A stretch of DNA of 64,000 nt from Chitinophagales bacterium (GCA_046329575.1 JAXLUJ010000006.1:166121-230120); one strand, 5' to 3'. Shown: positions 6,911 through 61,546, numbered from the stretch's first letter. A program made the numbers and translations. Notes: generated by a model not told the origin, from the sequence alone.

Positions 6911-6984
6911 CTGATTCAACTTTTCTTCCATCTGGTTTTTACATACACTAAGACGGCTGCTGTTTTCGTTCTATCAAAAACGAT

Positions 6985-7489: not shown

Positions 7490-9043
7490 TTATTCTTTTA
7501 TAAACGTCCTTGCGATTACGCCGCTACTTCCTTTTAAGGTCAGCACATATGTTCCTTTAGAAAGCGTACTCGTATTCAAAATATACTGAACACCGGTAGT
7601 GATGTGCGATTGCTCCAGCACTTCACGGCCATCTATAGTGGAAACAGCTACATCGTATGCTTTATCCTGCGAATTTCCTGTTACATAAAAATAGAGCACA
7701 TTCGAAGTAGGATTTGGCGACAGGCGAATCTCCGCCAATTCTTTAGTGGATTCCGTAACACCCAAATCGTTTTGGCAACCTGGCACCAGACAACCAAAGC
7801 TATCTAGTTTAATAATCCAGCCGCGTTGGTAAATAGAGTCGTTGGTGTTTTTAGTGTCGCCACAAGCAATTAAACTGCCATCCGGTTGCTCCACTATGTC
7901 GTACAAACTACTGATTTGCGCGTTGCTTAGAGCGCGGTAAGAGCGTTCCCATATAATTTTTGCACTATCGGATTCATCCGAAAACTTAACCAGATAACCT
8001 GCAACATAAACAGACGTATCTTCCGGATTAAGGATGTTTCGCCCAACTGCCACATAATTACCATCATGAACTTTCTTAATACTGAACATGGTGGTAACTG
8101 TTTCAAAGGTAAATTGGGGTATAGGTCTGGTTAACTTCTTATGCCATCGCAGAACCCCGGTGCTTCCTACTTTGCCGATCAATGGTTGATAAGCCAAAAG
8201 GTCCACGGTATTAGAATGATCGAACCAGCTGCTACAAAATACCATAGATTGATCGGACGTATCAATCACAGCCGAGGCAATACCCTGAATACTGTCGGGT
8301 AAAATGAACCTTCGTATTTCGTTGCCCGATGAATCAATATAAAAAACGACGGGATGAAATATAGGAGATACGCTAGCAAGCGGCGTATAACCTGCAACCA
8401 AATGCTCACCGTACCTGGATGGCTTAATGATCTGTGGTACAAAGTCGGCATCAGCAGGTTGAGGATACCAGCGAGTCCAAAGAATAGCACCCGAACTGTC
8501 AAAACAATAAATCCGGATCCTGACCTTTTGATCGGTTAAACTCCGTTGTAAGCCATTGAGAACAAGAGTGGTGTTAAAATCCGTCGGACTAAAATCATAG
8601 AAATAATTGGCTTTATAATTTGAGTCGAAAACGTTTACAGCAAAAACAATGTTTCCGGTAGTGTCAAAAAGGTCTAAAAAATTATAAAATGATCCATCAG
8701 CATATCTTATTGCTGAGCCTCCAATTATCAATTGATTCTTTGAATTAATCCGGGGAGTGTTCTCCACCACAAAATACGTTGCCGCTGTGTCTTGAGTTCC
8801 ACTATTCCACAAAAAGGAAATAGAGCCATTATCATTTAATCTTCCCAATACTACATTTGACTTGGGCTCTGTACCGGAGCTATCGAAATAGTTAAGACTC
8901 ACAAAAGACTTATCAGCTATATTTTTTACACCCGAAACTATGGTGTTTCCATGCACAAACTGATTGGTGACATTATACCCTTGAGCATTTGCATCACTCA
9001 TCCTAATGAATAAGATTATTAATATCAATTTGGCTGTGTTCAT
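7490..9043 (-). CDS. Secreted protein with T9SS C-terminal sorting domain
   Basis: 517 aa with an N-terminal signal peptide. C-terminus LSPNPTSNVLYFYV...KGTYVLTLKGSSGVIARTFIKE. Confidence 0.8.
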   Translation of the reverse strand: MNTAKLILIILFIRMSDANAQGYNVTNQFVHGNTIVSGVKNIADKSFVSLNYFDSSGTEPKSNVVLGRLNDNGSISFLWNSGTQDTAATYFVVENTPRINSKNQLIIGGSAIRYADGSFYNFLDLFDTTGNIVFAVNVFDSNYKANYFYDFSPTDFNTTLVLNGLQRSLTDQKVRIRIYCFDSSGAILWTRWYPQPADADFVPQIIKPSRYGEHLVAGYTPLASVSPIFHPVVFYIDSSGNEIRRFILPDSIQGIASAVIDTSDQSMVFCSSWFDHSNTVDLLAYQPLIGKVGSTGVLRWHKKLTRPIPQFTFETVTTMFSIKKVHDGNYVAVGRNILNPEDTSVYVAGYLVKFSDESDSAKIIWERSYRALSNAQISSLYDIVEQPDGSLIACGDTKNTNDSIYQRGWIIKLDSFGCLVPGCQNDLGVTESTKELAEIRLSPNPTSNVLYFYVTGNSQDKAYDVAVSTIDGREVLEQSHITTGVQYILNTSTLSKGTYVLTLKGSSGVIARTFIKE

Positions 9044-22782: not shown

Positions 22783-23054
22783 TGGATCCAAAAATGAATT
22801 TTCTGTTTATCGGCGGCATGTTGGCCGTGATGTATTTCTTTTTCATTCGCCCGCAAAGCCAAAAGGTGAAAAAGGAAAAAGAGTTTGTAGATGCCTTAAA
22901 AAAAGGCGATAAAGTAGTGACCACGGCCGGAATCCATGGCACAGTTGAGCGCGTGGAAGACGACGCGATTATTCTGGAAATTGCCAAGGATGTAAAAATC
23001 AAAGTGGCCAAAGCGGGCATCTCGGGCGAAATGAGCCAGACAAGCGCAAAGTGA
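22782..23054 (+). CDS. yajC: Preprotein translocase subunit YajC
   Basis: One TM segment, then IRPQSQKVKKEKEF...LKKGDKVVTTAGIHGTV. Confidence 0.85.
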   Translation: MDPKMNFLFIGGMLAVMYFFFIRPQSQKVKKEKEFVDALKKGDKVVTTAGIHGTVERVEDDAIILEIAKDVKIKVAKAGISGEMSQTSAK

Positions 23055-23166
23055 AAAGTTATAAGTTCTGAGTTCTAAGTTCTGAGTTCTGAGTAAAAAT
23101 GGAGCGTTCAAACTCCGTGACCCAATTACCCTTAATTTTAAACTTATAACTTGTAACTTAAAATTA
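23055..23166. repeat. Self-contained heptamer-array hairpin (RAGTTCT-type arm, approx 37-nt centre, inverted AACTTRT-type arm) directly after yajC
   Basis: Left arm 23055-23094, right arm 23132-23166. The complementarity is imperfect and tolerates register shifts. Confidence 0.75.
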
Positions 23167-23173
23167 CCTGCGC

Positions 23174-24436
23174 ATGATTCCATTGCCGGAGCGGCTGCGG
23201 CCGAAGCGTTTTGAAGATTTTGTTGGGCAGCAACATTTGTTGGGCGAAGGCAAAGTGCTTCGAAAACTGATTGAATCGCAGGCCATTCCTTCCATGATTT
23301 TTTGGGGGCCTCCGGGGGTGGGCAAAACTTCTATTGCTCGTTTTATTGCCGAAAAAGCTACGCTTCCTTTTTATGCGCTTAGCGCCATTGATGCCGGCGT
23401 GAAAGAAGTGCGCGCCGTGATCGAAAAGGCCACGCAGCAAGGTCAGGCCATTCTGTTTATTGATGAAATTCATCGTTTCAACAAGGCGCAACAAGATGCA
23501 TTGTTAGGCGCTGTGGAACGCGGCACCATCATCCTGATTGGCGCCACTACCGAAAACCCGTCATTCGAAGTGATCTCAGCGCTGTTGTCGCGCTGCCAGG
23601 TGTACATTTTAAAATCACTGGAACGCAGTGAGCTGGAACAATTGGTGCATAGTGCGTTGCAAAAAGACGAATGGCTACGTACGAAAAATGTGACTATTGA
23701 AGAAACAGAAGCCTTGCTGCGCTATAGCGGCGGCGATGCGCGGAAGTTGCTGAATGTACTGGAATTGGTAGTGAAATCGTTTGACGAAAATCAACAACCT
23801 AAAAACATCACCAATGCTTTTGTGGAATCGGCCATTCAACAAAAAATGGCGATTTACGATAAAAGCGGAGAACAGCACTACGACATCATTTCAGCCTTTA
23901 TCAAATCCATTCGGGGCAGTGATCCCAATGCGGCTTTGTATTATTTAGCCCGAATGATTGAAGGCGGTGAAGACCCGAAGTTTATTGCGCGGCGTTTACT
24001 GATTCTAAGCAGTGAGGATATCGGCAATGCCAATCCGAATGCGCTGCTGCTGGCCAATGCCTGTTTTCAGGCGGTAACTACCATTGGCTATCCCGAATGC
24101 CAGCTCACCCTTTCACAAACTGTAATTTATTTAGCTACGTCTCCGAAAAGCAACAGCGCCACCACAGCCATTGGCGAAGCCCGCGCTAAGGTGCGCGAAA
24201 CCGGCGATTTGCCTGTTCCGCTGCATTTGCGCAATGCACCAACCAAACTGATGAAACAATTGAACTATGGGAAAGATTATCAGTATGCGCACAGCCATGA
24301 AGGCAATTTCATAGCCGATGAGTTTTTACCCGAAAAAATAAGCGCCACCAAATTTTATGAACCGGGCAACAACGCCCGCGAAAATGAAACCCGCAAACAG
24401 TTACGCCAGTGGTGGAAGGAGAAGTACGGATATTGA
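23174..24436 (+). CDS. rarA: Replication-associated recombination protein A (AAA+ ATPase)
   Basis: Walker [10 protein letters not shown], Walker [13 protein letters not shown], and the MgsA C-terminal region [12 protein letters not shown]. Confidence 0.9.
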
Positions 24437-24496
24437 AAGGGGAAAGTTGAAAGTTTCAAGTGAAAAATTTTAAGTGGAAAGAGAAAGTTGGAAGTC
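24435..24496. repeat. Heptamer-block array (GTTGAAA/GTGAAAA/GTGGAAA type), left boundary of the AT-rich island
   Basis: Reads GAAAGGGGAAAGTTGAAAGTTTCAAGTGAAAAATTTTAAGTGGAAAGAGAAAGTTGGAAGTC. Confidence 0.7.
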
Positions 24497-27426: not shown

Positions 27427-30303
27427 ATGCTGAATTTACGTTCTACCGACGCGTTTGTAAACCGTCACTTAGGTCCCAACTCACACGAAACTTCTGAAAT
27501 GCTCAAAGCCATTGGCGTAGCCAGTGTGGATGAACTGATTGCACAAACCGTTCCGGCAGCCATTTTGCGCAACCGACCGTTACAGTTACCTGAAGCCCAA
27601 AGCGAATACGACTACCTTCGCTTTCTTCGTCAGAAGGCCGCAAAAAACAAACTCTTCAAAAATTTCATCGGTTGCGGTTATTACGGCACCATCACTCCTG
27701 CTGTGATCCGGAGAAATATTCTCGAAAATCCGGGTTGGTACACCCAATACACACCTTATCAGGCCGAAATCGCACAAGGCCGCCTGGAAGCATTGCTGAA
27801 TTTCCAAACTATGATCAGCGACCTCACCTCCATGCCGGTGGCCAATGCCTCGCTGCTGGATGAAGGTACGGCAGCCGCCGAAGCCATGCACATGTTCTGG
27901 GGAGTAAAGAATAAACGCGAAGCAGAATTCAATAAGTTTTTTGTATCCGAAAAATGTTTCCCGCAAACTATTGATGTAATCAAAACCCGCGCACACATCC
28001 TGGGTATTGAAGTAGTAATTGGCGATCACAACACTATTGCAATTGACCAGCAATTCTTCGGGGCTTTACTGCAATATCCGGCTATTGATGGAAATGTTCA
28101 CGATTACAGCCCTTTTGTAAGTAAATGTAAGGCGGTGGAATGTTATGTGACGGTAGCCGCCGACCTGCTCGCACTCACGCTCCTGACGCCGCCGGGCGAA
28201 TGGGGCGCTGATTGTGTAGTTGGAAATTCTCAGCGCTTTGGAATCCCGATGGGTTATGGCGGTCCGCATGCCGCATTCTTCGCCACGCGCGACGACTTCA
28301 AACGCATTCTTCCCGGCCGTATCATTGGCGTTTCGATAGATGCGCAACAACAACCCGCCTTGCGCATGGCGCTGCAAACGCGCGAGCAACACATCCGCCG
28401 CGAAAAAGCTACTTCCAATATTTGTACGGCTCAGGCCTTGTTAGCCATTATGGCGGGCATGTATGGCGTTTACCACGGCGGCACAGGTATTAAGGCTATC
28501 GCACTTCGTATCAACACCCTGGCGCTTACACTTCATCAGGAATTAAAGAATCTGGGATTTGAAGTGAACCAACAGCCATTGTTCGATACCGTTTGTGTGA
28601 ACACCAAAGGTTCGGAAAAATTGCACGACAAGATCCACCACATGGCGCTGGAACGCGAAATGAATTTCTTTTACGATGTGCACGCTATTTATATTTCGGT
28701 TGATGAAACCACATCGCCCGAAGATGTTACTGCCATTTGTGGTTTGTTTGCCGAAGCACACGGAAAAACCAATTATGCTTTTGCTATCGAAAAAGCGGCT
28801 GCGGCCGTAAAACCTTATGCACCGCGCACTTCGGCGTATCTCACTCATGCAGTGTTCAACACCCACCGCAGCGAAACCCAATTGATGCGCTACATCAAAT
28901 CACTGGAGAATAAAGACCTAAGCCTCACCAAAAGCATGATACCGCTGGGAAGCTGCACCATGAAACTGAATGCGGCAGCTGAACTGGAGCCCGTGAGCTG
29001 GCCGGAGTTTGGCGGATTGCATCCTTTCGTGCCACAGGAACAGGCTGCGGGATTTCAGGAAATCTTACGTGAATTGGAAAGTTACCTCAGCGAAATTACC
29101 GGCTTTGCCGGAACTTCGCTGCAACCCAACAGCGGTGCTCAAGGCGAATATGCCGGATTGCAGGTAATTCGCGCCTATCAAAAGGACAACGGACAAGCCC
29201 ATCGCGATGTAGCCCTCATTCCGGCTTCGGCGCATGGCACCAACCCCGCTACAGCCGTAATGTGTGGATTAAAAGTGGTAGTGGTAGCTACGAATGAAAA
29301 AGGCGAGATCGACTTTAACGATCTGATGAAAAAGGCAGAGGAACACCGCGATAACCTCTGCTGCCTCATGGTTACTTACCCTTCTACGCATGGCGTTTTT
29401 GAACACAACATCAAAGAAGTTTGCGATTTGATTCACGCACATGGCGGACAAGTTTATATGGATGGCGCGAATCTGAACGCTCAGGTAGGATTGACCGGCC
29501 CGGGTTTCATTGGCGCTGATGTGAACCACATCAATCTGCACAAAACCTTTGCTATTCCTCACGGTGGCGGCGGTCCGGGCATGGGTCCTATTTGTGTGGC
29601 CGAACACCTCACACCTTATCTGCCGGGTAATCCGCTTATCCAAACCGGTGGCGAAAAAGCAATCACGGCTATATCATCAGCGCCTTATGGCAGCGCCAGC
29701 ATTTTGCTAATCTCCTACGGTTATATCCGTATGCTGGGCGCCGAAGGCTGCACGGCTGCTACGAAGTATGCCATTCTAAACGCCAACTACATTAAAGCGC
29801 GGCTGGAAGATCACTTCCCGGTTTTATACACCGGCGATATTCACGGCCGCGTGGCGCATGAACTGATTGTTGATTTCCGCCATTACAAACATACCGTAGG
29901 CATTGAAGTGGAAGACGTGGCCAAACGGTTGATGGATTATGGTTTCCACGCGCCAACGGTTTCGTTCCCGGTTGCCGGAACGTTGATGATTGAACCTACT
30001 GAAAGTGAAGATAAGGCCGAATTGGACCGTTTGTGCGATGCGCTGATTGCTATCAAAGGCGAGATTGAAAAAATTCATGGAAAGGTGTGGGATGCCACTA
30101 ACAATCCACTGAAAAATGCACCGCATACGCTCGAACTGATTACAGCTAACGAATGGACTCGTCCTTACACCCGCGAAGAAGCCGCGTTCCCGCTGCCGTG
30201 GGTTCGCCATAACAAGTTCTGGCCAAGCGTAAGCCGGGTGAACAACTCACATGGCGATAGAAATCTGATTTGTACTTGCCCGGCAGTGGAGGAGTATATG
30301 TAG
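27427..30303 (+). CDS. gcvP: Glycine dehydrogenase (aminomethyl-transferring), glycine cleavage P protein
   Basis: 958 aa from [18 protein letters not shown]. It has the [25 protein letters not shown] and [18 protein letters not shown] motifs. The track ORF's earlier start is an antisense artefact. Confidence 0.95.
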
Positions 30304-30305
30304 AT

Positions 30306-30387
30306 ACAATTCACAATGGACAATGAACAATGAACAATGAACGATGAACGATGTGTCATAAGTCATTGTAAATTGTGAATTGTAAAT
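30306..30387. repeat. Self-contained heptamer-array hairpin (ACAATGA arm / TCATTGT-AATTGTR arm) directly after gcvP
   Basis: Left arm 30306-30352, centre TGTCATAAGT, right arm 30364-30387. Confidence 0.75.
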
Positions 30388-30669
30388 GGCGTTGTTGCAT
30401 GAAATTATAGTCTAAACAGGATTTTTATTTTTGCGGATGCCGGGCTGTTCGCTGCAAGTCCTCAGCCGCGGCCTAACTTTTGTGATCCTTGAAATGCAGC
30501 AGTGGCGCGGCTTCCGGGCTTTCCGCTACCATCCCTACCGCGGTTTGCCAAAATATAAAGCCAAACTCATTTTGAACAACACACACAAGTCCTTTTAAAT
30601 ATTTCATCACCTTTTATGAGGCAATGCCCATCCTTGGCGCGTCTGAATTATTCATGCAACAACGCCATT
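30385..30669. mobile_element. MITE-like 285-bp non-coding insertion with 19-bp perfect terminal inverted repeats; contains a GC-rich family element (approx 30436-30545, reverse orientation)
   Basis: AATGGCGTTGTTGCATGAA (30385-30403) is the exact reverse complement of TTCATGCAACAACGCCATT (30651-30669). The flanks on both sides are ATTGTRA heptamers that would be contiguous without the segment. Confidence 0.45.
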
Positions 30670-30704
30670 GTAAATTGTAAATTGTGAATTGTGAATTGTG
30701 AATT
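30667..30704. repeat. ATTGTRA heptamer array (about 5 units), left arm of the 30.7-31.9 kb cassette
   Basis: Reads ATTGTAAATTGTAAATTGTGAATTGTGAATTGTGAATT. Confidence 0.8.
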
Positions 30705-31895: not shown

Positions 31896-32017
31896 AAAAT
31901 TCAATTTACAATGAACAATACACAATGGACAATGGACAATGAACAATGAACAATGAACAATGAACAATGAATAATGAATAATGAATAATCGACAATGGAC
32001 AATTCAAAATTTAAAAT
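31896..32017. repeat. ACAATGA heptamer array (about 17 units), right arm of the 30.7-31.9 kb cassette
   Basis: 7-nt periodicity with variants ACAATGG, ATAATGA and ACAATAC. It is the reverse complement class of 30667-30704. Confidence 0.85.
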
Positions 32018-32109
32018 GCACGATAAACAAGGAGTGTGACTATTTGCAATACATGCTGAAGGATGGTAGTTCAACCAGGTATAAGAGAACGGAAAAACCT
32101 TCTAAATTC

Positions 32110-34533
32110 ATGATTATGTATAGAAAAAACTTTCACTCACTTGTTTTGCTTTTATACGTATGGATACCCCATGCATTGTTTTCGCAACAGGCTAACGATA
32201 CCATCAACGCACAACAGTTCAATGCTGCCTTTGCGGAAAAAGTATTTTTGGAAGAAGTAAATCGCTTTCGCAATTCCTCGGGAATCGACCCTTTAATTTC
32301 AGATGAAGCGCTTCAAAAATCTGCTAACGATCAGGCACAATATTGCCGTTACAATAACAAACTTACCTATACTCAGGAACGCAATACCGAAAAGGCTGAT
32401 GCCGTGAAACGCGCGCGGTACTTCAAGTCTAACGCTTTTTTAATAGGCGAATCGAACGCTATGGTGTTCGTTCGCCAACCGTTTACGCACCCGGTAACGC
32501 ATGCGCCTACCACGATCGAAACGTACAAGCAACTGGCACAATATCTGTTTTCTATTTGGTGGAAAAACAAAAACGATAACGGTCCAATTGCAGACGGCAC
32601 CTACGTTTCAACAGGTTTGGGATTCAGCTTTAGCGACAACGGTCATCTTCTTTTTGTAGTGCAATCGCTGGGCTCGGCATCTTATAAGCCGATGAAAAAT
32701 CGTTTGGTTTACAGCGATACTACTTTTGGCATTCACGATTATTCCGGGCGGTGTAAAGTGCCCGACGACAACAATTTTCTCGCTCACATTTTATCGAATT
32801 ATCTGGTAAGGCGGGATGATAGTCTGTTCATTTATTACATGGCCGAGCAGCGGTTCAAAAGACTCATTCAACGGCCCAACGACGGCATTGCCGTAGATTT
32901 ATTATTCAGCGATCAGTTCAGTTGCAAAGGCGAAAACAATTTACATCCGTCATCAGTATTCGACGGCTATTTGTTGCCTCCGGTATATCGCGATGATCTT
33001 ATCAAAAACGATGAATTTAAGGACGAACGGTTTTTGTCGTTTGTAGGTGTAATTCCGGCTGCTGTGGCCAACGCGCCCGATTTGCAGTTCAACACCTTAC
33101 TGATTCAAAACGGCAATTTGTGCCGGTATTCGTTTCCGGTAGAAGTGCTTTCCGATTTGATAGAAGATGTTTCCATTGCGCCGCAGTGGTGCGAAGAGCA
33201 GGGAACTATTAAAACCGGGAAAGCTGCTTTTGTAAAGGAATTTGAAATTCCATTTGAACGAAATGAAACCAATGCCGACAGTTTTTATTTTGAAAAGCTG
33301 GACCGATTGATTGATGTTTTCGGCACCAGCATTCATCATATCGAAATTACGGCATACAGTTCAGTAGAAGGCAAGGAGGCCATCAATTTAAGCTTGCAAA
33401 CCCAGCGCGCCGCCTTTTTGGAGAAGTATATTTCAGAACGTTTGCAGAAAAAGGTTCCCATTGCAAAAAAGGCGGAAGAAAACTGGAATTTGTTTTATGA
33501 GCAAGTGAAGGGAACGCCCTATGCGCGCGACTTTCAGGGCATGACTACGGAACAGATCCGCACTGCGGTAAACAGTTCGGAAAGTGCGGTAATTCAGCAT
33601 TGGCTCGATTTGCAGCGGCATTCCACCATTCGCATTTATGTTGAAAAGGAGTACAATCAATGGAGTCCGGCAGGAGATATGCCGTTAGTGCTTTACGATG
33701 CCCTGCAACGCAACGATACATCGCAGGCCCGGATTGCATACACTAAAATAATCAAGGCTGTAGAGCGTAATGAGATCAGGAAGTATTACCTCACTGCAGT
33801 TGAGGTGCCTTTAAAAGAAGCGTATTTGCCACTGATCAGCAATTACCTGGCTTCGATTATTGTAGAATCCGATGTTTTCAATTACAGCCATTTCAGCAGC
33901 GGGTATTTCGATTATATCGACAGCGCCCAAAGGCGTTTCCCTGATTTTGTGCCCTTGCTATTCAATCTGGAAATTTTCAAAATGCATTGTTATTTGCGCG
34001 GACTGGCGTATAACGAACGCCAAACGAATGAAGAGACTTTTAGAAGAATTTCTGCAGGATTATTGAAATTAAAGCAGACCGGGCTAATTGACACTGCTGT
34101 TATGAATGCGGCGTTTTACAATTATTATTTGACTGCCGCAGTTTACTACCGCAATATTTATAGGTATAAAGAAATGGGCGAATCGTTCGACAAGTTGAAA
34201 CCGTATTTGCCATTAAGCAAACTCAACGCAGCCGATGTATTTACGATCGGGAAGTTCTTCAACTATTTTTACCGGTTAGACATGACCATTGATTTGCTGG
34301 AGCGTTATGAAAAAATTTATCCTGACGATAAGGACCTCATCTATCTGTATGTGAGCAGTGGCGCGCTATTTATGATGGATGAAAGTTCCAGGAGCAAGAA
34401 ATACTATGAGAAACTGGATCAATTTTCGAAATATGATAAGAGCCGCTTCTGCGAATGGATTAATAGTAATTATCAACTGCTGCGTTATGAAAAAATGAAG
34501 GCATTGGCTTGTGGTGTTTGCGGCAGAAAATAG
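32110..34533 (+). CDS. Large secreted multi-domain protein (N-terminal CAP/SCP-like region; central OmpA-C-like signature; helical repeat C-terminus), function unknown
   Basis: I re-called the start to MIMYRKNFHSLVLLLYVWIPHALFSQQ (ATG at 32110), because the track start lies in the heptamer array. Signatures: EEVNRFRNSSGIDPLISDEALQKSANDQAQYC and IEITAYSSVEGKEAINLSLQTQRAAFLEKYI. Confidence 0.7.
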   Translation: MIMYRKNFHSLVLLLYVWIPHALFSQQANDTINAQQFNAAFAEKVFLEEVNRFRNSSGIDPLISDEALQKSANDQAQYCRYNNKLTYTQERNTEKADAVKRARYFKSNAFLIGESNAMVFVRQPFTHPVTHAPTTIETYKQLAQYLFSIWWKNKNDNGPIADGTYVSTGLGFSFSDNGHLLFVVQSLGSASYKPMKNRLVYSDTTFGIHDYSGRCKVPDDNNFLAHILSNYLVRRDDSLFIYYMAEQRFKRLIQRPNDGIAVDLLFSDQFSCKGENNLHPSSVFDGYLLPPVYRDDLIKNDEFKDERFLSFVGVIPAAVANAPDLQFNTLLIQNGNLCRYSFPVEVLSDLIEDVSIAPQWCEEQGTIKTGKAAFVKEFEIPFERNETNADSFYFEKLDRLIDVFGTSIHHIEITAYSSVEGKEAINLSLQTQRAAFLEKYISERLQKKVPIAKKAEENWNLFYEQVKGTPYARDFQGMTTEQIRTAVNSSESAVIQHWLDLQRHSTIRIYVEKEYNQWSPAGDMPLVLYDALQRNDTSQARIAYTKIIKAVERNEIRKYYLTAVEVPLKEAYLPLISNYLASIIVESDVFNYSHFSSGYFDYIDSAQRRFPDFVPLLFNLEIFKMHCYLRGLAYNERQTNEETFRRISAGLLKLKQTGLIDTAVMNAAFYNYYLTAAVYYRNIYRYKEMGESFDKLKPYLPLSKLNAADVFTIGKFFNYFYRLDMTIDLLERYEKIYPDDKDLIYLYVSSGALFMMDESSRSKKYYEKLDQFSKYDKSRFCEWINSNYQLLRYEKMKALACGVCGRK

Positions 34534-34545
34534 ACGGACCGGTTA

Positions 34546-34923
34546 AGGGAGAGGCAAGACACAAGATGCAAGACGCAAGAGGCAAGCCATGAGCCGATAG
34601 TTATGAGCTGCGAGCTACAACACACTCACGCTACCAATACACCGATACACGGATACACGTTTAGATGCAAGACGCAAGACACAAGACGCAAGTCGCAAGC
34701 TGTGAGCTGAGAGTTATGAGCTGTGAGCTTCAACACACTAACTCTACCAATACACCGATACACGGATACACGTTTAGATACAAGACGCAAGACACAAGAT
34801 GCAAGACGCAAGAGGCAAGCCATGAGCCGATAGTTATGAGCTGTGAGCTTCTACACACTCACCAAACTTACCAAACTCACCACACCTACCACACCTACCA
34901 CACCTACCACACCCACCATACCC
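34546..34923. repeat. Composite tandem array: three 113-bp units, each made of a GCAAGAC block, a TGAGCTN block and an ACACAC/ATACACGGATACACG block; the last unit ends in CACCTACCA 9-mers
   Basis: Unit starts are at 34554, 34667 and 34780. 34554-34610 is identical to 34787-34843 (57 nt), and 34631-34666 is identical to 34744-34779 (36 nt), by my reading. Confidence 0.9.
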
Positions 34924-34925
34924 TT

Positions 34926-36065
34926 TTACAAAGCCTTTCCGTACAACATTCTGAAATCGGCGCGACTTACCGGTTTTGGATTGTTAGGATGTGCGAAATC
35001 GGCAAAAGCTAGATCGGCCAACGTTTCCAGATGCTCCTCCTTCACATGAATATCGCGCAGGCGATGCGGAATGCCAATTCGAGAGTTCAAATCGAAAAGG
35101 TATTTCACTACAGCCGCGCCATGCTCTTCTTTCAGTTCAAGCGTGCGGGCTATCCTTTTAAACTTTTCTTCAAACCCTTCAATATTGTATTCCATGCCAT
35201 AAGGAATGTTTACCGCATTGGCCAAACCATGGTGTGTATCCAGCAAACTGGAAAGCGGATGCGCCAGAGAATGCACCACTCCTAAGCCTTTCTGAAATGC
35301 GATAGCGCCCATCATCGAAGCCAATAACATATTCGATCGCGATTCCACATCCGGTTGTTTCACAGCTTTTTCCAGCGAAATAGAAATCAGTCGAATTCCC
35401 TCCAATGCAATACCATCGCAAATCGGATGATAATTCTTCGCCAAAAATGCTTCCATGTTATGCGTCAACGCATCCATTCCCGTGGCAGCTGTGATAAATC
35501 CCGGCAAATCCATGGTGAGCATCGGATCGGCAAAAACGATTTTCGCCAATAATTTAGGCGAAAACAAAATCTTCTTTTGGTGCGTTTCATCATCGGCAAT
35601 AATGGCGCTTCTGCCTACTTCGCTACCTGTTCCCGAAGTGGTGGGAATAGTGATGAAATGCGGTACATCATTGGTTACATACACATCGCCACCAATCAGG
35701 TCGTCATATTTAAAAAGATCTTCGCGATGGTGCGTACGCAATACGATAGCGCGCGCCACATCCAAAGCGGCGCCCCCACCAATGCCAATTATACAATCGC
35801 TTCGATACTGATCAAAAGCATCTGTACCCTTATACACATCACTTTTAACGGGGTTTTTATGAATGTTTGAAAAAACTTCAACTCCTAAACCGGCGCTTTT
35901 CAAATCGCTGACAATTGCTTTCAGAAAAGGCAATTGTGCCACCGTAGGATCGGTAACGATCAGCGGATTTTTAAGTTGATTTTTCTTGAGATATTCCGGA
36001 AGTTCCTTTACCACACCTGCACCAAAACGTATGGTGGTGGGAAAATTAAATTGTGAGATCGCCAT
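34926..36065 (-). CDS. Iron-containing (group III) alcohol dehydrogenase
   Basis: 379 aa with GGGAALDVAR, TTSGTGSEV and His-rich metal site motifs (HNMEAF, HSLAHPL). Confidence 0.85.
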   Translation of the reverse strand: MAISQFNFPTTIRFGAGVVKELPEYLKKNQLKNPLIVTDPTVAQLPFLKAIVSDLKSAGLGVEVFSNIHKNPVKSDVYKGTDAFDQYRSDCIIGIGGGAALDVARAIVLRTHHREDLFKYDDLIGGDVYVTNDVPHFITIPTTSGTGSEVGRSAIIADDETHQKKILFSPKLLAKIVFADPMLTMDLPGFITAATGMDALTHNMEAFLAKNYHPICDGIALEGIRLISISLEKAVKQPDVESRSNMLLASMMGAIAFQKGLGVVHSLAHPLSSLLDTHHGLANAVNIPYGMEYNIEGFEEKFKRIARTLELKEEHGAAVVKYLFDLNSRIGIPHRLRDIHVKEEHLETLADLAFADFAHPNNPKPVSRADFRMLYGKAL

Positions 36066-36124
36066 GCGTCAAAATTAATTTTTTTCTTCCGAAGCCGGGC
36101 CGTTTCACTGATGAAAAAGCAGCA

Positions 36125-37483
36125 TTAAATGATCTCGAAATAGCGTTTCATTTCCCAATCGGTCACCGCCTTAGAAAACTGCCGCCACTCCCACTCCCGG
36201 GTTTGTGTAAAGTGCTGCACAAAAGTTTCTCCAAACAATTCTTTGGCAATTTTCGAATCGCGCATTTTCACCGTAGCCTCGTGCAGATTCTTTGGAAATT
36301 TTCCGTAGCGCTCTTCACGATAGCCATTGCCCAAAACCGCAGGCTGCTTCAGTTGCAATTTATGCTTCACACCATATAAACCTGCGGCCAAACAAGCCGC
36401 CATAGCCAGATAGGGATTACTGTCGCTACCTACCACTCTGGTTTCCAGCCGCGATGATTTGCTACCGCCAGGAAGCGCCCGTAAAGCCACCGTACGGTTA
36501 TCTACGCTCCAGGTGACCGTAGTGGGCGCCCACGCTCCTTCTACCAAACGTTTATAGGAATTTACCGTTGGCGCTACCATAGGTAAAATTTCGGGAAGGC
36601 AATAGAGTTGTCCGGCCAGATAGCTCCTGAACACCGCACTCATTTTGAGTGGATCTTTATCATCGTGAAAAAGGTTTTTCGAACCTTTTTTATCCCACAA
36701 ACTTTGGTGCACATGGCCGCTGCAACCGGGTAAATTTTCAGATATCTTGGCCATGAATGTGGCGATAATGCCATAATGATATCCAATTTCTTTAGCTGCG
36801 GTTTTGAACAACACAGCGCGGTCAGCAGCTTCCAGCGGTGCCGAATAGGTGATGGCCGCTTCATAAACTCCCGGACCGGTTTCGGTATGCAAACCTTCCA
36901 ATGGTATGCCGAAATTTTTCATTCCATCGAACAACGCATTGAAATAATCGTTGCGGTAAGTGCTGCGTAATATAGAATAGCCAAACATTCCCGGAGTGAG
37001 CGGTTGCAATTTTTGGAAGTTTTTTTCCTGAAGGCTCTGAGGGGTTTCTTCAAAATTGAACCATTCAAATTCCTGCGAAAAGCAAGTGGTGTAGCCGGCT
37101 TTATCGGCCTGAGCAATGATTTTTTTCAGCAATTGGCGCGGACAAATTTCAAGCGGTTGCTCCCCGCCTGAAATAAATTCGCCCAAAAAGAATGGCACAT
37201 CGTTTTCCCAAGGAATCTTGCGAAAAGTGGAAAGATCGATTCGAGCCTTGGCATCAGGATAACCACTGTGCCATCCGGTAAACGACGCATTATCGTAAGC
37301 TACATCGGCAGCGTCCCACCCAAAAACCACATCACAAAATCCAAAATCGGAATTCGCTACAGAAAGAAATTTTTCTGCGCTCATGTACTTTCCCCGCAGC
37401 ACGCCATCTATATCGGTAATGGCTACTTTTACTTTCCCCGATGGATGTTTGGCTACGTAATCCAGAATCTGTTTGGTTGTCAT
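36125..37483 (-). CDS. Glutamine synthetase-family gamma-glutamyl-amine ligase (PuuA/GlnA4-like)
   Basis: I re-called the start to MTTKQILDYV (ATG at 37483). GS beta-grasp N-terminus and catalytic domain (FEWFNFEE, PGCSGHVHQSLW, NSYKRLVEG, SRLETRVVGSDSNPYLA). Confidence 0.8.
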   Translation of the reverse strand: MTTKQILDYVAKHPSGKVKVAITDIDGVLRGKYMSAEKFLSVANSDFGFCDVVFGWDAADVAYDNASFTGWHSGYPDAKARIDLSTFRKIPWENDVPFFLGEFISGGEQPLEICPRQLLKKIIAQADKAGYTTCFSQEFEWFNFEETPQSLQEKNFQKLQPLTPGMFGYSILRSTYRNDYFNALFDGMKNFGIPLEGLHTETGPGVYEAAITYSAPLEAADRAVLFKTAAKEIGYHYGIIATFMAKISENLPGCSGHVHQSLWDKKGSKNLFHDDKDPLKMSAVFRSYLAGQLYCLPEILPMVAPTVNSYKRLVEGAWAPTTVTWSVDNRTVALRALPGGSKSSRLETRVVGSDSNPYLAMAACLAAGLYGVKHKLQLKQPAVLGNGYREERYGKFPKNLHEATVKMRDSKIAKELFGETFVQHFTQTREWEWRQFSKAVTDWEMKRYFEII

Positions 37484-37535
37484 ATCGCTAAGTTTCTTTT
37501 GCAAGTTCAGGAATCTAATTATGAAAATTGATGTA

Positions 37536-38834
37536 TTATTTAAACAACTTAAACACCACAAAACTCACGGCCAGCAATCCAAAGAAAAGCAACGCCAGAA
37601 AAGCGTTATACCAGGCCAAGGCAATTACGGCTACAACCGCAATACTAAGAGCAATTAATGGTAGAATAGGATAGAACGGCACCCTAAAAGGCCGTTCCAG
37701 ATCGGGTTCGGTACTGCGTAATTTGATTATAGAAAGACAGGAAAATATGTAGAGCAGCAGCGCACCAAACACGCTGAGTGTAATAATATCGCCGGTGCGT
37801 TTGGTGAATAGCGCTACAATGCCTATGGCCATATTGAACACCAGGGCGTAATGTGGCGTTTGAAAGCGAGGGTGCACTTTTCCCAGTTGGGATGGGAAAT
37901 GTTTGGTACGGCCAAACTCATAAGTGGCGCGGCCTGCAGCCAACAGCAATCCATTGAACGAGGCCAGAAAGCCAAACAGACCGATGCTTACCAGCAGATG
38001 ATACATTAAACCTCCCTCGCCGGTGATTTGCGCCAACGCCATGGGCAGTGGCGAATCACTTACGGCACCATTCTTATCATAAACAACTTTTTCCCAACCG
38101 CCGATTCCTACGGAAGCCGCAAACGTAATCGTAGCCAGAATTCCCAATGTGATCATACTATAAGCAAACCCTTTGGTGATATTTTTTTGCGGATCAATCG
38201 TCTCTTCTGCCACATTCGCCAATCCTTCCATTCCCAAAAAGAACCAGATTGCAAAAGGTATGGCGGCAAATATGCCCGGAATGCCATGTGGCAGCGGATT
38301 TTGCACGATATGCCGCCATTCAAAATGCGGTAAAGTGAGCGATGCATACAAGCTCAACTCCCCTACAGCAATAAGGGTAACCACCAGTTCCAGCATAGCG
38401 GAAAGGTGGACGCCAAGCACATTCACCGTAGTGAAAAAAAAGTAAGCGATTACCGCAAAATACAATTGATCAACAGCCGGAAAAAGCAAGTGAAAGTAAG
38501 CGCCAATGCCCAGCGCAATGGCCGGAGGGGCAAACACAAATTCGATCCACTGCGCCATACCTGCTATAAAACCTACATCTTTTCCAAAAGCCCGCGCGGC
38601 ATAGTCGAACGCGCCACCGGCCTTTGGTATGGCACAGGCCAGTTCAGAATACGAAAGTGAAAAAGTGATGTACATCACCAGAATAAAAAAAGTGGCAATG
38701 GCCAGGCCCAGCGTTCCGCCTTTATCAAGCCCAATATTCCAGCCGAAATACATGCCGCTGATTACATAGCCCACGCCCAGTCCCCACAACATGAGTGGAG
38801 TAAGCGTTCGTTTCAACCCCTGCGTTTCGCTCAT
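37536..38834 (-). CDS. APC-superfamily amine permease, ethanolamine-permease (EAT)-like
   Basis: 12-TM protein. The N-terminus LMLWGLGVGYVISGMYFGWNIGL...AIPKAGGAFDYA matches my memory of EAT-family permeases. Confidence 0.75.
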   Translation of the reverse strand: MSETQGLKRTLTPLMLWGLGVGYVISGMYFGWNIGLDKGGTLGLAIATFFILVMYITFSLSYSELACAIPKAGGAFDYAARAFGKDVGFIAGMAQWIEFVFAPPAIALGIGAYFHLLFPAVDQLYFAVIAYFFFTTVNVLGVHLSAMLELVVTLIAVGELSLYASLTLPHFEWRHIVQNPLPHGIPGIFAAIPFAIWFFLGMEGLANVAEETIDPQKNITKGFAYSMITLGILATITFAASVGIGGWEKVVYDKNGAVSDSPLPMALAQITGEGGLMYHLLVSIGLFGFLASFNGLLLAAGRATYEFGRTKHFPSQLGKVHPRFQTPHYALVFNMAIGIVALFTKRTGDIITLSVFGALLLYIFSCLSIIKLRSTEPDLERPFRVPFYPILPLIALSIAVVAVIALAWYNAFLALLFFGLLAVSFVVFKLFK

Positions 38835-38923
38835 GTAGTGAATGTAAAATTATTTTTTGCCGAATAGAGCGATGGCCGCACAGTTCATTAAACTTTCAAT
38901 TATATTCACCTTACGCAAATCAG

Positions 38924-40369
38924 ATGGAAATGGAAGCAACAATGGCACCGCCGGTACACACCAGCGCTAATACCGATATAAAAGAAGTGAAACGCCTGTA
39001 CGACCTGCAAAGGTCTAACCTGCAAAATCTGAAAAACGAACGGATAGCCGATCGGGTTTCTAAGATTGAAAAATTGCAAAAGGCAGTGCTGGCCAACCGC
39101 GAAAAAATTGAAAAGGCGCTGTATGATGATTTCCGCAAACCGGCAATTCACACTGCCTTCAGCGAAATTTATCCCGTTGTGGCCGACTGCCGGACCTATC
39201 GCGCCAATTTGCATCAATGGGCCGAACCGGAAGAAATTGATGTACCGCTGGTATTCACCGGAACAACAGCAAAACTGGTTTATGAACCCAAAGGCCATTG
39301 CCTCATCCTTTCGCCGTGGAATTACCCGTTCCAAATTCCGGTACGGGCCCTCATCAGCGCCGTTGCGGCCGGCAATGCGGTGTTGCTGAAACCATCGGAG
39401 TTTACACCACATACTGCCGAAATTTTAAAACTGATTCTAAAAGAAGTATTTTCTGAGAACGAGGTAGCAGTAATCACCGGCGATCTTTCGGTTTCTCAGG
39501 CCGTGCTGGATATGCGTTTCGATCATATCCACTTTACAGGAAGCCCGGCCATAGGAAAGCAGATCATGAAAAAAGCTGCCGAAACGCTTACCAGTGTTAC
39601 CCTCGAATTGGGTGGAAAATCGCCATTCATTATCGACGAAACCGCTAACCTGCAAAAGGCTGCGCGAAACATCGTTTTTAGCAAGTATATGAATAACGGC
39701 CAAACCTGCATTGCTGCCGATTACATTTTGGTGAAAGAAGAAGTGAAGGATGCATTTGTTACCGCCCTGCAAAAAGAAATCACCAAATCGTTTGGCGCCG
39801 ATCCTAAAACGTCGTCGGCTTATTGCCGTATGGTGAATGCCAAACACCATGCTCGTGTTGCAAAACTGATGGAAGATGCCATTCTGAAAGGCGCAAAAAT
39901 TGAAGCCGGCGGACAAACCGACATCGCAGAAAATTATATTGCACCAACCATTCTCACCAACGTAACAGCCGATATGCTGCTGATGCAGGAAGAAATTTTT
40001 GGTCCGGTGCTGCCGGTGCTCGGTTTCAAAACCATTGAAGAAGCCATAAACCTGGTTAACGCGGGCGAAAAACCTTTGGCGCTGTATATTTTCAGCAAGC
40101 GGAACAGCGCGCAGCAATATATCATTAACAACACTACGTCCGGAGCGGTTTGCATTAATGATTCTATGATTCAGAACAGCTATGCCGGTTTGCCGTTTGG
40201 CGGCGTCAACAATTCCGGAATTGGCAAAAGTTATGGCATTTGGGGCTTTAAAGATTTCAGTAACGAAAAACCGGTGGTGAAAGCCTACATTCCGCCTACT
40301 GATTTGCTAACCCCGCCCTACAATAAAATGAGCGAAACACTGGTGAACGCCATGCTTCGTTTTTTATAG
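38924..40369 (+). CDS. NAD(P)-dependent aldehyde dehydrogenase (class 3-like)
   Basis: FTGSPAIGKQIM, ELGGKSP, catalytic QTCIAADY, and EEIFGPVLPV. Confidence 0.9.
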   Translation: MEMEATMAPPVHTSANTDIKEVKRLYDLQRSNLQNLKNERIADRVSKIEKLQKAVLANREKIEKALYDDFRKPAIHTAFSEIYPVVADCRTYRANLHQWAEPEEIDVPLVFTGTTAKLVYEPKGHCLILSPWNYPFQIPVRALISAVAAGNAVLLKPSEFTPHTAEILKLILKEVFSENEVAVITGDLSVSQAVLDMRFDHIHFTGSPAIGKQIMKKAAETLTSVTLELGGKSPFIIDETANLQKAARNIVFSKYMNNGQTCIAADYILVKEEVKDAFVTALQKEITKSFGADPKTSSAYCRMVNAKHHARVAKLMEDAILKGAKIEAGGQTDIAENYIAPTILTNVTADMLLMQEEIFGPVLPVLGFKTIEEAINLVNAGEKPLALYIFSKRNSAQQYIINNTTSGAVCINDSMIQNSYAGLPFGGVNNSGIGKSYGIWGFKDFSNEKPVVKAYIPPTDLLTPPYNKMSETLVNAMLRFL

Positions 40370-40405
40370 AACGAAATTCCTATTATTACGAATTCAATTG
40401 ATTCG

Positions 40406-40858
40406 ATGAAAAATTTTGTTGCGATATTCTTTGTTCTTCTTGCATTGGCAGGGGCTACATCTTGTAAAAAGACGAGCGAGATGGCTATTTCAGAACCCAT
40501 TACTATTGTAACTCCTGATTCTAATTTCATCAGGCTGCTGCCCGGCCGCGATCAGCCGCTGGACATTCGTTTCACTACCGATCGTCCCATTCAATTTGTA
40601 AAAGGCATGTATGAAATCGACAGCGTAGAAATTCCCGGCCATGTTTATACGTTTCCTGATACGTTGTTCTACACTATTCTCGACTCGGTGGGCGTAACCA
40701 CCAAAGTGAACAAATACCAATACACCGGAACATTCCATGTGCCTGATACGCTTTTGGGCGAAGAAATTATTCGCTTCCGCATTAGCATGCAAGCTAAGAA
40801 CGATGCGGCTTCCAGCACCATCAACTATCAGAAGGAATTCAAGATTGGAGTAAAATAG
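40406..40858 (+). CDS. Hypothetical lipoprotein
   Basis: Lipobox LALAGATSCKK. I recognise no family. Confidence 0.65.
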   Translation: MKNFVAIFFVLLALAGATSCKKTSEMAISEPITIVTPDSNFIRLLPGRDQPLDIRFTTDRPIQFVKGMYEIDSVEIPGHVYTFPDTLFYTILDSVGVTTKVNKYQYTGTFHVPDTLLGEEIIRFRISMQAKNDAASSTINYQKEFKIGVK

Positions 40859-40956
40859 TTATAAGTTATAAGTGGAAAATTGAAAGTAAAATTGAAGTGG
40901 CTGAGATTTTGCCAATCGTCCATTTTACATTTTCAACTTTCAACTTTTAATTTAAT
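40859..40956. repeat. Self-contained heptamer-array hairpin (GTGGAAA/TTGAAAG arm, 19-nt loop, inverted arm)
   Basis: Left arm 40859-40900, loop 40901-40919, right arm 40920-40956. Confidence 0.75.
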
Positions 40957-41070
40957 GGCGGCACCCGCGCTCTACGTTCCAATCTTTTTGCGCGGCCACT
41001 GATTCATTACTTCCGAGGTTGCGGAATGCCGCGCAAAAAGGATTTCCACTTCGATCGCTGCCGCGGTTGG
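40957..41070. repeat. GC-rich interspersed element copy (reverse orientation)
   Basis: The reverse complement starts CCGCGGCAGCGATCGAAGTGG and ends AGCGCGGGTGCCGCC, like the 44139-44242 copy. The internal hairpin has a 13-bp perfect stem, CTTTTTGCGCGGC (40984-40996) / GCCGCGCAAAAAG (41028-41040). Confidence 0.7.
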
Positions 41071-59725: not shown

Positions 59726-60676
59726 TTATGTTCGTTCCGCCACCCGCAATTTGGCCGATCGCGAGCGGCTGTTTTCCTTTTGTTCGCTATCGCCTGCCAC
59801 AATGGGCTTTTTGGTGATCAGCTTCCACTTTCTTTCCGTTTTTCCAAAGGCGTCTTTTTCCGGCTCATCTGAAAAATTGCCATGCTTCATATAGTTCTTC
59901 ACCAATCGGTCTTCCAGTGAATGAAAAGTGATCACGCATAACCGACCTCCGGTTTTGATGATCTCCTCACTTTGCAAAAGCAGTGCTTTCAATGCATCCA
60001 GTTCGCCGTTCACTTCAATTCGCAAGGCTTGAAATACCTGAGCAAAGTATTTATGCTTTTCGCCTATGGCATGCTGCTCCAGCAGTTGCACCAAATCAGC
60101 AGTTCGGCGGAATTCACGCACTTTCCGTTGCGCCACAATTGCTGCAGCAAGCGTTTTGGCATTTCGCACTTCGCCATAGCTTCCTAAAACTTCCTGCAAC
60201 CTTGCAGCAGGAAATTCGTTTAACACCATAGCTGCCGTTGTGGCGGCCCGAACGTTCATGCGCATATCCAAAGGTCCGTCGAAACGAAAACTGAATCCGC
60301 GATGCGGCGTATCGAACTGAAAAGAACTAACACCTAAATCGGCAAGCAATCCGTCCAGTTGCTGCACGCCATGCAATCGCAGAAACTTTTTTATTTGACT
60401 GAAATTGCTGTTCACGGCAGTAAACCGGTCGTCTTCAATGGCGTTGGCCAGCGCATCCGCATCCTGATCAAAACCCAGCAAACGACCCTGCGCACCCAGG
60501 TGCTTTAGGATTTCGCGCGAGTGACCGCCGCCGCCAAATGTGGCATCGGCATAAGTGCCATCAGGCTGCAACTGAAGTCCTTCCAGACATTCATGTAAAA
60601 GAACGGGTATGTGATAAGCCGCTGCTTTCTCTTCCTGTTCCGAATGAAAGCGCTCGTTCGGTTTATCCTTTTTCAT
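59726..60676 (-). CDS. rsmH: 16S rRNA (cytosine1402-N4)-methyltransferase
   Basis: HIPVLLHECLEGL, DATFGGGGHS, and ITFHSLEDRLVK. Confidence 0.95.
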   Translation of the reverse strand: MKKDKPNERFHSEQEEKAAAYHIPVLLHECLEGLQLQPDGTYADATFGGGGHSREILKHLGAQGRLLGFDQDADALANAIEDDRFTAVNSNFSQIKKFLRLHGVQQLDGLLADLGVSSFQFDTPHRGFSFRFDGPLDMRMNVRAATTAAMVLNEFPAARLQEVLGSYGEVRNAKTLAAAIVAQRKVREFRRTADLVQLLEQHAIGEKHKYFAQVFQALRIEVNGELDALKALLLQSEEIIKTGGRLCVITFHSLEDRLVKNYMKHGNFSDEPEKDAFGKTERKWKLITKKPIVAGDSEQKENSRSRSAKLRVAERT

Positions 60677-61118
60677 CTAAATATTTCGAAACCACATCTG
60701 CCAGATGCGAGATATTTCCATGCTGCGAAGCAATGAACTGATCGTATTTCGAACTCTCCCATATCTGGATCTTATCGAACATTCCTTTCAGCACCACTTC
60801 CTTCGCATTTCCGATATAACGCATCAATTGTTTTGAGATCAGAAACCTTCCGCTGTTGTCAAACTCCACTTCGGTAAGGCCGGCGGTAATTCCATTAATG
60901 AAATTCCGGTGCTCGGGGTTATAGGTATTCAGCTTGCGAAGTTTGGCCTCTTGCTCCGCCCAGGTTTGCATAGGATAAATCACCAGACAATCGTCAATAT
61001 CCTTGGCGATATAAAAACAGCCCTTATCCTCAGCAGGGAACTGCTTGAAAAACGATGAAGGCATCTTGATTCTGCCTTTGTCGTCAACCGTGCATGTGAT
61101 CTCTCCGAGAAACTTCAT
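60663..61118 (-). CDS. mraZ: Transcriptional regulator MraZ
   Basis: I re-called the start to MKFLGEITCTVDDKGRIKMP (ATG at 61118). It has two SpoVT/AbrB-like halves (DDKGRI.. / DNSGRF..). Confidence 0.9.
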   Translation of the reverse strand: MKFLGEITCTVDDKGRIKMPSSFFKQFPAEDKGCFYIAKDIDDCLVIYPMQTWAEQEAKLRKLNTYNPEHRNFINGITAGLTEVEFDNSGRFLISKQLMRYIGNAKEVVLKGMFDKIQIWESSKYDQFIASQHGNISHLADVVSKYLDEKG

Positions 61119-61130
61119 TCTGATGATTAC

Positions 61131-61522: not shown

Positions 61523-61546
61523 CATAGTTTTCTGTTTCTTTGCAGA

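Follow-up and report, generated by a model that had tools for sequence, protein, structure and literature searches.

Tandem heptamer arrays are known from cyanobacteria, in which short tandemly repeated repetitive (STRR) sequences were reportedly described by Mazel and colleagues in 1990. Bacterial interspersed mosaic elements (BIMEs) are built from imperfect palindromic units of ~35 nt, the repetitive extragenic palindromic (REP) units, which alternate in orientation and form hairpins. Here we report on a composite array of short tandem repeats, with a higher-order period of 113 bp, at positions 34547 to 34923 of a 64,000-nt stretch from a Chitinophagales bacterium (GCA_046329575.1, JAXLUJ010000006.1:166121-230120; this whole stretch is referred to as the window). 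Specifically, two blocks of the array that look like separate modules form one continuous array in 7-nt phase, and related arrays are present at three other intergenic loci in the window.

Long simple sequence repeats with units of 5 to 11 nt (LSSR5-11) were surveyed by Mrazek, Guo and Shah (2007), and as summarised in PMC4679880 heptanucleotides constitute the most abundant class, the repeats are mostly non-coding and are found in free-living bacteria with larger genomes; expansion by polymerase slippage, linked to a 7-nt contact of the polymerase and without a specific physiological role, was proposed (also as summarised in PMC4679880). MacGregor (2015; PMC4679880) described several different heptamer arrays side by side in intergenic regions of Bacteroidetes (Gramella forsetii, Aequorivita sublithincola and Elizabethkingia anophelis), and nearly identical copies of larger heptamer assemblages at more than one locus in Elizabethkingia. 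In the same study arrays were missing from the syntenic spacers of close relatives, short-read contigs ended inside the repeats, and a link between heptamer repeats and gene rearrangement was suggested.

The composite array is 377 bp long and occupies nearly all of the 392-bp spacer that separates two convergent genes (open reading frames, ORFs, 31981-34533 on the plus strand and 34926-36065 on the minus strand); a position between convergent genes had been stated in an initial annotation that was made from the sequence alone. Using Tandem Repeats Finder (TRF) a period-113 array was detected at 34550-34859 (2.6 copies, 84% matches, score 487), with period-7/14, period-8 and period-9 arrays nested within or behind it, which agrees with the view of a higher-order repeat made of short repeats. 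The parts, where A, B, X and C denote successive blocks of a unit, are as follows.

34547-34923, plus strand: whole composite array, three tandem units of ~113 bp and a 9-mer tail (TRF and repeat-family search)
34553-34615, plus strand: heptamer array of unit 1, parsed in phase (TRF period 7/14 at 34550-34586)
34553-34587, plus strand: A sub-block of unit 1, four NNCAAGA and one GGCAAGC
34588-34615, plus strand: B sub-block of unit 1, CATGAGC CGATAGT TATGAGC TGCGAGC, in phase with A
34616-34665, plus strand: X block (ACAACACACTCACGC), C block and linker (TTTAGA) of unit 1, with a 36-nt stretch identical to unit 2
34633-34659, plus strand: C block of unit 1, an 8-mer micro-array with ACACNNAT about three times (TRF period 8)
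34666-34778, plus strand: unit 2, with A at 34666-34700, B at 34701-34728, X at 34729-34744, C at 34745-34772 and the linker at 34773-34778
34779-34848, plus strand: A (34779-34820, six heptamers, one more than in unit 1) and B (34821-34848) of unit 3
34848-34932, plus strand: tail, in which the X-block motif CACACTCAC is expanded to a 9-mer array (CAAACTYAC, CACACCTAC; TRF period 9)

Each 113-bp unit carries a period-7 array of 5.3-5.6 copies (34550-34586, 34663-34699 and 34781-34819). The segment that follows B (ACACACTCAC...) leads into the three-copy 8-mer array, detected as period 8 at 34633-34659 and 34746-34772 (2.9-3.2 copies), while in unit 3 its motif is expanded to 9-mers instead, i.e. 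the period-9 array at 34861-34922 (6.9 copies) with which the third unit had been said to end. The A blocks also hold period-14 and period-28 sub-repeats, and higher-order structure is thus present at several scales. Of the exact 113-bp period proposed initially the unit starts 34554, 34667 and 34780 could be retained, but in the repeat-family search the three copies were spaced 113 and then 120 nt apart because unit 3 has one extra heptamer. When recomputed, the longest identical stretches were 57 nt between units 1 and 3 and 36 nt between units 1 and 2, the same values as given before, and 20 nt between units 2 and 3; unit 3 is accordingly a mosaic, identical to unit 1 over 57 nt and then to unit 2 over 20 nt. 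All three units are direct, arranged head-to-tail, contiguous and internally repetitive without unique spacers, in contrast to the layout of clustered regularly interspaced short palindromic repeats (CRISPR), where conserved repeats of 25-50 nt are separated by unique spacers of similar length.

To describe the heptamers we divided the sequence of the four related loci into 7-nt units in one constant phase and tabulated all units without filtering for a core motif, giving 78 units, which given the period-14 and period-28 sub-repeats are not independent events. The GCAAGAC block and the TGAGCTN block emerge as one continuous array in 7-nt phase with the consensus YRYRAGM. Positions 5-6 are AG in 78/78 units, positions 1-4 follow Y-R-Y-R in 69-74 of the 78, and position 7 is A or C in 66. 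Positions 3-4 and 7 are CA and A in A-type units and TG and C in B-type units, such that three positions differ, and the units at the A/B boundary are stepwise intermediates, from CAAGA via CAAGC to TGAGC (GGCAAGC or G[GT]AAAGC). This weakens the "grammar" of independent modules put forward in the initial annotation; what looks like a grammar is a series of micro-arrays derived from adjoining sequence rather than a set of independent modules. Forms with CG (CGCGAGA, TGCGAGC, TACGAGC) occur among the units as well. The variation between CG, TG and CA shows a transition-type pattern, and our claim is limited to that; CpG deamination as its general source was considered and rejected, with CpG observed/expected being 1.17 in the window.

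The A-to-B pattern gave 14 matches in the window and none in 100 shuffled sequences, which excludes chance as its origin. Apart from the composite array the related loci are:

63833-64000, minus strand: second full composite, A-B-X-C-A, cut by the window end and located upstream (on the minus strand) of tRNA-Leu 63540-63624
5962-6071, plus strand: A and B array, nine NNCAAGA, GTAAAGC and six NNTGAGC, downstream of the methyltransferase-like ORF 5032-5940
4844-4979, minus strand: A and B array between divergent genes, 12.6 period-7 copies at 4890-4977 (TRF)

In a self-comparison of the window the segment 63833-64000 aligned with the composite array over 157 nt with 77% identity (E ~1e-29) and with unique flanks, and the match spans a full unit plus the next A block. 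The recurrence in reverse orientation noted at the window end is hence a full, diverged copy. The partial recurrence noted around the methyltransferase at 5 kb was also found again: 4844-4979 and 5962-6071 contain A and B blocks only, form an inverted pair that brackets ORF 5032-5940 and have an idiosyncratic boundary unit in common. Each of the four A/B loci occupies an intergenic spacer, and these spacers are divergent, co-directional, convergent and upstream of a tRNA gene. Dispersal "around the chromosome", as it had been phrased, therefore holds as far as other loci in both orientations are concerned, but its scope is the 64-kb window. The recurring module order is better explained if the loci are paralogous copies of one composite.

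Period 7 dominates among the short tandem repeats in the window. With one threshold for all periods there are 24 period-7 arrays compared to 0-2 for each other period from 4 to 12, and merging gives 17 arrays totalling 697 nt in 64 kb; the orthologous 21-kb loci of four relatives have 0-2 small arrays each. On the scale of the window at least 10 heptamer families are present at ~12 loci, including ACAATGA, ATTGTRA, AAGTTCT, TTGAAAG, TCATCTC and TTTCAGT. Since the arrays lack stop codons, ORF calls are inflated. At 4702-5010 and 63464-63925 arrays are likewise covered by spurious ORFs. An (ACAATGA)n array of ~14 copies (31908-32003) is located in the divergent spacer upstream of the gene for a CAP-domain protein, the longest ORF of which (start at 31981) begins within this array, with the true start and a signal peptide likely near 32110. 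The divergent neighbour of the 4.8-kb array is a large gene, 2-4744 on the minus strand, which is open over at least 1,581 aa and runs off the left window end.

The window, from a soil-type bacterium, was placed in Bacteroidota on the basis of a Flavo-1 RNA, type IX secretion system (T9SS) sorting domains and a GldM domain, and the closest homologs of its alcohol dehydrogenase (ADH; 84-88% identity) belong to metagenome-assembled genomes (MAGs) named Chitinophagales. The genes on the two sides of the composite array are:

31981-34533, plus strand: upstream flanking gene, CAP/SCP-domain protein, true start probably near 32110, stop codon 14 nt before the array
34926-36065, minus strand: convergent flanking gene, iron-containing alcohol dehydrogenase (Fe-ADH), stop codon 3 nt from the tail

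A look-up of the 807-aa version of the CAP-domain protein returned no exact record. In four Chitinophagales relatives (L043-L046; ADH 84-87% identical) the ADH gene is followed, co-directionally, by genes for a peptidase-C26/glutamine amidotransferase (GATase), a histidine kinase and a LytTR regulator, and no A/B array was found in the corresponding spacers (3-156 nt) of these four. Compared to the relatives, the block 34926-40858 (aldehyde dehydrogenase, amino-acid permease, glutamine-synthetase-like protein and Fe-ADH) is inverted relative to the downstream GATase, histidine kinase and LytTR genes. The composite array lies at one end of the inversion and an unrelated heptamer hairpin at the other, and both spacers are rich in heptamers. 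Its absence in the relatives together with the inversion suggests that the array is young or lineage-specific and tied to a rearranged neighbourhood. We considered that homologous recombination between arrays had inverted the ADH block and rejected this, as the heptamers at one end (34.5 kb) are unrelated to those at the other (40.9 kb). In two of the relatives the GATase start codon is directly preceded by a different heptamer array, with TAACTAC/TCAATAC units (L044 11266-11292 and L045 11164-11193). The formation of heptamer arrays is thus a repeated event in this clade, with units that are specific to the locus. The arrays at the GATase gene recall the TAACTGA repeats that are located upstream of start codons in Beggiatoaceae (MacGregor 2015).

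With respect to structure, the composite array folds no better than shuffled controls on either strand (z = -0.24 and +1.04; sub-regions +0.5 and +1.2), which places it with the unstructured kind of heptamer locus. In the region 34400-35000 we detected no inverted repeats and no Rfam 15 match at the gathering threshold or at E<=1, and between 34300 and 35200 neither terminator-like sites nor a promoter consensus on either strand. Like REP/BIME elements the array is intergenic and dispersed, with mosaic combinations of short motifs, and REP/BIME elements are often found between convergent genes; unlike them it has no palindromes, no inverted repeats, no excess folding energy and units that are all direct, without alternation within the array. 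The BIME-type analogy suggested at the outset was consequently abandoned.

A second, structured class of heptamer loci is present in the same genome, which holds both kinds: inverted array pairs right after stop codons (23050-23170, 30300-30395 and 40855-40960) fold as long AU-rich hairpins (z = -3.9, -4.2 and -4.4; 0/200 shuffles as good) and may act as terminators or 3' stabilisers. Flavo-1 RNA (Rfam RF01705, 52.5 bits; 40959-41066 on the minus strand) adjoins the hairpin at 40.9 kb. Moreover, 247 nt are enclosed by an inverted repeat of 33 nt (30371-30403 and 30651-30683, within which AATGGCGTTGTTGCATGAA / TTCATGCAACAACGCCATT pair perfectly), and the region 30365-30704, a structure resembling a miniature inverted-repeat transposable element (MITE) or a very long hairpin, is bracketed by ATTGTRA heptamer arrays. 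Finally, three identical 36-nt direct repeats (GCTGTAAATTCATTGAAAACCAAGGTGTCTACCACC) with unique spacers of 29-30 nt are present at 61357-61523 in the layout of a CRISPR-like mini-array. They are located upstream of mraZ-rsmH (60663-61247 and 59726-60676, minus strand), and since there are no cas-like genes nearby they could be reiterated operator sites for MraZ instead of CRISPR.

To identify similar arrays elsewhere the representative genomes of the Genome Taxonomy Database (GTDB), among which the source genome is absent, were scanned for CAAGANNCAAG, a gap and TGAGCTNNGAGCT, in the single order A to B. The scan gave 41 loci where ~34 are expected by chance, of which ~17 are real period-7 arrays. 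These include two Chitinophagaceae MAGs, one of which (L018) has the blocks in a palindromic arrangement, A-B...B'-A', and arrays in Bacteroidales, Marinilabilia, Desulfobacterota, Acidobacteriota, Chloroflexota and Cellvibrionaceae. In the Nitrospinota MAG NC_groundwater_1031 a near-identical intergenic palindromic element of ~170 nt, with arms made of these heptamers, is present at no fewer than five loci; the arms read GCAGAGN, GCAAGAN, AGCTGAA and, on the other side, TTGAGCT, TCTTGCT, TCTCTGC (L024 4570-4760 and 5280-5420; L032, L036, L037 and L042). This MAG also has a separate perfect fold-back in which eight GCAAGAT are followed by their own reverse complement. The same GCCAAGA and GCTATGA/GCTACGA heptamers are interleaved in members of different phyla, namely Marinilabilia, two Bacteroidales MAGs, Desulfosarcina and a Syntrophobacteraceae MAG (L006, L035, L038, L004 and L014). 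In nearly all real cases displayed B continues A without a break of the 7-nt register, with several distinct phase relations. Among 19 A-to-B instances across genomes 17 are intergenic, and orientation relative to the upstream gene is mixed (eight same, seven opposite). The C-to-A junction that defines the 113-bp unit gave no match in a scan of Joint Genome Institute (JGI) metagenomes, and the specific A-to-B boundary gave 47 metagenome matches that were all chance matches without period-7 structure; short-read assemblies are probably unable to hold such arrays. It is rather improbable that NNCAAGA arrays continuing in phase into NNTGAGC/GCTATGA represent a widespread sequence-specific class across Bacteroidota, Acidobacteriota, Desulfobacterota, Chloroflexota, Nitrospinota, Gammaproteobacteria and Omnitrophota, and not a local accident. 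If they do, this would imply either conserved machinery that generates or recognises them, with a dedicated polymerase, a primase, a template-switching activity or a conserved nucleic-acid-binding protein as candidates, or horizontal spread of a cryptic element.

We consider the best explanation, with a probability of roughly 0.6, to be a largely neutral cluster of heptamer arrays that was generated by slippage, became a 113-bp higher-order repeat when unequal exchange duplicated it again, and was copied to a few other spacers. Directly observed are the anatomy, the continuous phase, the mosaic of the units, the dispersal in the window, the lack of structure and the absence from relatives; that slippage and unequal recombination generated the array, and that it is neutral, is what we infer. 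In a non-coding spacer, replication slippage with a strong preference for the 7-nt register would build a heptamer array. Variant units would arise by point changes, for the most part transitions, that affect positions 1-4 and 7 of the unit, and slippage would re-expand the variants into sub-blocks, resulting in the apparent GCAAGAC and TGAGCTN modules of a single YRYRAGM array, while adjoining motifs would seed the 8-mer and 9-mer micro-arrays likewise. Misaligned pairing of two A sub-blocks, through slippage or unequal crossing-over, could then duplicate the A-B-X-C segment, with later exchange between units producing the mosaic of identical stretches, and segmental duplication or inversion may have set copies at other intergenic sites. 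Most likely the composite array is near-neutral filler with side effects, rather than a dedicated regulatory or mobile element; as side effects it would be a hotspot for recombination and assembly breaks and a source of unstructured spacer sequence.

That the array is an assembly or sequencing artefact, in which a long-read assembler would have spuriously expanded a shorter repeat, was checked against short-read Logan contigs. The exact ADH and methyltransferase-like proteins of the window are each encoded on such a contig from run SRR26348422. One contig (L094) equals window positions 4909-8940 with 0 differences in 4,032 nt, spans the A/B array at 5962-6071 entirely and ends within the inverted array at 4909; the other (L001) ends 37 nt into the 9-mer tail, with one base of one 9-mer differing from the window. 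The 5.9-kb array is hence reproduced exactly while contigs break inside two others. The three-unit arrangement is spanned by none of the independent contigs, which stop at the array edge, and this and the one-base difference would fit an artefact; the identity of L094 and the divergence of the units in a mosaic pattern, rather than as identical copies, make it very improbable, and in addition the first 37 nt of the tail are present in L001 and the same composite recurs at a second locus. Propagation as a mobile element, with A-B(-X-C) as a non-autonomous MITE- or REP-like unit moved by a trans-acting enzyme and with the arrays as its ends, would account for the two full composites, which are separated by 29 kb, opposite in orientation and flanked by unique sequence, for the inverted A/B pair that brackets a single gene, for the palindromic arrangement in the Chitinophagaceae MAG and for the at least five near-identical palindromic copies of the same heptamer types in the Nitrospinota MAG. 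At the 34.5-kb locus, however, there are no terminal inverted repeats or target-site duplications, its flanks are unique, and the arrays have ragged edges that vary from locus to locus; the 31 ORFs scanned in the window include no transposase- or RAYT-like gene, BLAST against plasmid and phage records gave no match (where the low-complexity filter may mask the query), a scan of viral contigs gave 0 matches, and the 77% identity of the copies fits an old segmental duplication or inversion equally well. We therefore regard mobility as improbable.

Function at the level of RNA or DNA was weighed in the same way. As an RNA-level insulator the T-poor, unstructured transcript, mainly the G-free tail, would act as a rut-like Rho loading site that stops read-through from the CAP-domain gene before it becomes antisense transcription of the convergent ADH gene, replacing the missing intrinsic terminator. 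No G-free run in the window is longer than the tail (34848-34932; 85 nt, 0% G, 52% C, 17 YC dinucleotides). Its value for C minus G is the maximum (0.50 over 78 nt, with 0.31 as the next best), and with a minimum free energy of -0.8 kcal/mol for 86 nt it has essentially no RNA structure; no intrinsic terminator is present between the convergent genes, and convincing ones are found elsewhere at array-free gene ends. Yet this rut-like composition (~80 nt, C-rich, G-poor, unstructured and downstream of a gene) is confined to the tail and is a compositional resemblance, not proof; A and B blocks have no excess of C over G, and other heptamer arrays that follow genes either lack C or are neutral (e.g. 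24433-24495). A/B arrays are found in every type of intergenic spacer and may point either way with respect to the genes, and the composition of the tail is the trivial outcome of expanding one CACCTACCA unit. An insulator appears unlikely. It is likewise unlikely that the array is a DNA-level binding array, where AG in YRYR context every 7 bp would be a putative site for a nucleoid-associated, regulatory or single-strand-binding protein with an effect on local topology, on recombination (inversions) or on how the flanking genes are expressed. The invariant AG, with the other positions varying only within purine and pyrimidine classes, the recurrence of similar heptamers in unrelated phyla, the inverted ADH block with heptamer-rich DNA at both ends, and the links of heptamers to gene rearrangement and RNA-binding regulators suggested by MacGregor (2015; PMC4679880) all point in this direction. 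On the other hand, with one site every 7 bp adjacent sites do not face the same side of the helix, the two ends of the inversion have no homologous repeat in common, and no candidate protein emerged. Arrays in this genome are also made of many unrelated heptamers (ACAATGA, AAGTTCT, TTGAAAG and others), which favours a generic process over one binding specificity.

Several observations do, nevertheless, weigh against a largely neutral array generated by slippage. The invariance of the AG core in all units, with variation confined to Y/R alternatives, could be due to selection on the motif instead of a recent origin, and pairs of CAAGA/GAGCT heptamers, present in no fewer than seven phyla, are not predicted by pure local neutrality. 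In L018, a different Chitinophagaceae genome, the A-to-B boundary is near that of the window (CAAGAGGCAAGC-Y-ATGAGC). The sole hint of polymorphism is the single base difference in L001: the comparison of array lengths between strains covers one other sample, where L094 is identical and L001 has the 1-nt difference at the contig tip. Moreover, it is exactly between convergent genes that the most extreme G-free, C-rich and unstructured tract of the window is located. Canonical terminators are missing from gene ends that have heptamer arrays, and the few convincing terminators are found at array-free gene ends, although counts in the terminator and promoter scans are at background level and this mutual exclusion rests on very few cases.

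The locus provides a dissected Chitinophagales example of heptamer microsatellites maturing into composite higher-order repeats, in which apparently distinct modules can be variants of one array. Such arrays explain the fragmentation of short-read assemblies of this lineage at intergenic spacers and could serve as hypervariable strain markers. For the dominance of 7-nt units in certain bacteria, and any role that they may have, the G-free tail between the convergent genes and the cross-phylum heptamer pair are possible experimental handles, if the organism or a relative can be cultured.

Comparison with known systems shows which parts of the array are familiar. With the cyanobacterial STRR sequences it has in common tandem 7-nt units, intergenic positions, several heptamer families per genome at many dispersed loci and no established function, and on the scale of the window the STRR comparison drawn in the initial annotation is apt. 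It differs in that the STRR host is a heterocystous cyanobacterium with CCCCAGT, TTGGTCA or CAACAGT units, while here a Bacteroidota/Chitinophagales genome carries YRYRAGM units and several micro-arrays are fused and then re-duplicated as a 113-bp higher-order unit; in the strict sense (heterocystous host and STRR1-3 consensus) the array is thus outside the STRR family. As in higher-order repeats of eukaryotic satellites and minisatellites, short monomers diverge, a block of several monomers becomes the unit by unequal exchange and homogenisation is mosaic, but here there are three units in 377 bp of a bacterial spacer without a centromeric or structural role. The LSSR5-11 repeats are similar in their dominant 7-nt units, their mostly non-coding arrays and the slippage proposed for them, and differ, as far as the summary in PMC4679880 goes, in that the survey did not include this lineage and apparently treated arrays singly and not as composite higher-order units.

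Literature searches with the literal sequences found no relevant paper that contains them, and we found no published description of such arrays in Chitinophagales; the earlier statement that this is not a described family consequently holds for the sequences, but the class as such has been described for Bacteroidetes (PMC4679880). All five behaviours of the assemblages reported by MacGregor (2015) and referred to above are reproduced at this locus or in the window, the difference being that the search key there was TAACTGA and the heptamers here are others. The composite array hence joins the known, poorly understood bacterial heptamer arrays of the STRR/LSSR type, with direct precedent in Bacteroidetes. 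Neither a regular higher-order tandem period nor an in-phase derivation of B from A was reported by MacGregor (2015), and both are present here; they add to the published picture of heptamer arrays and do not constitute a new type of element.

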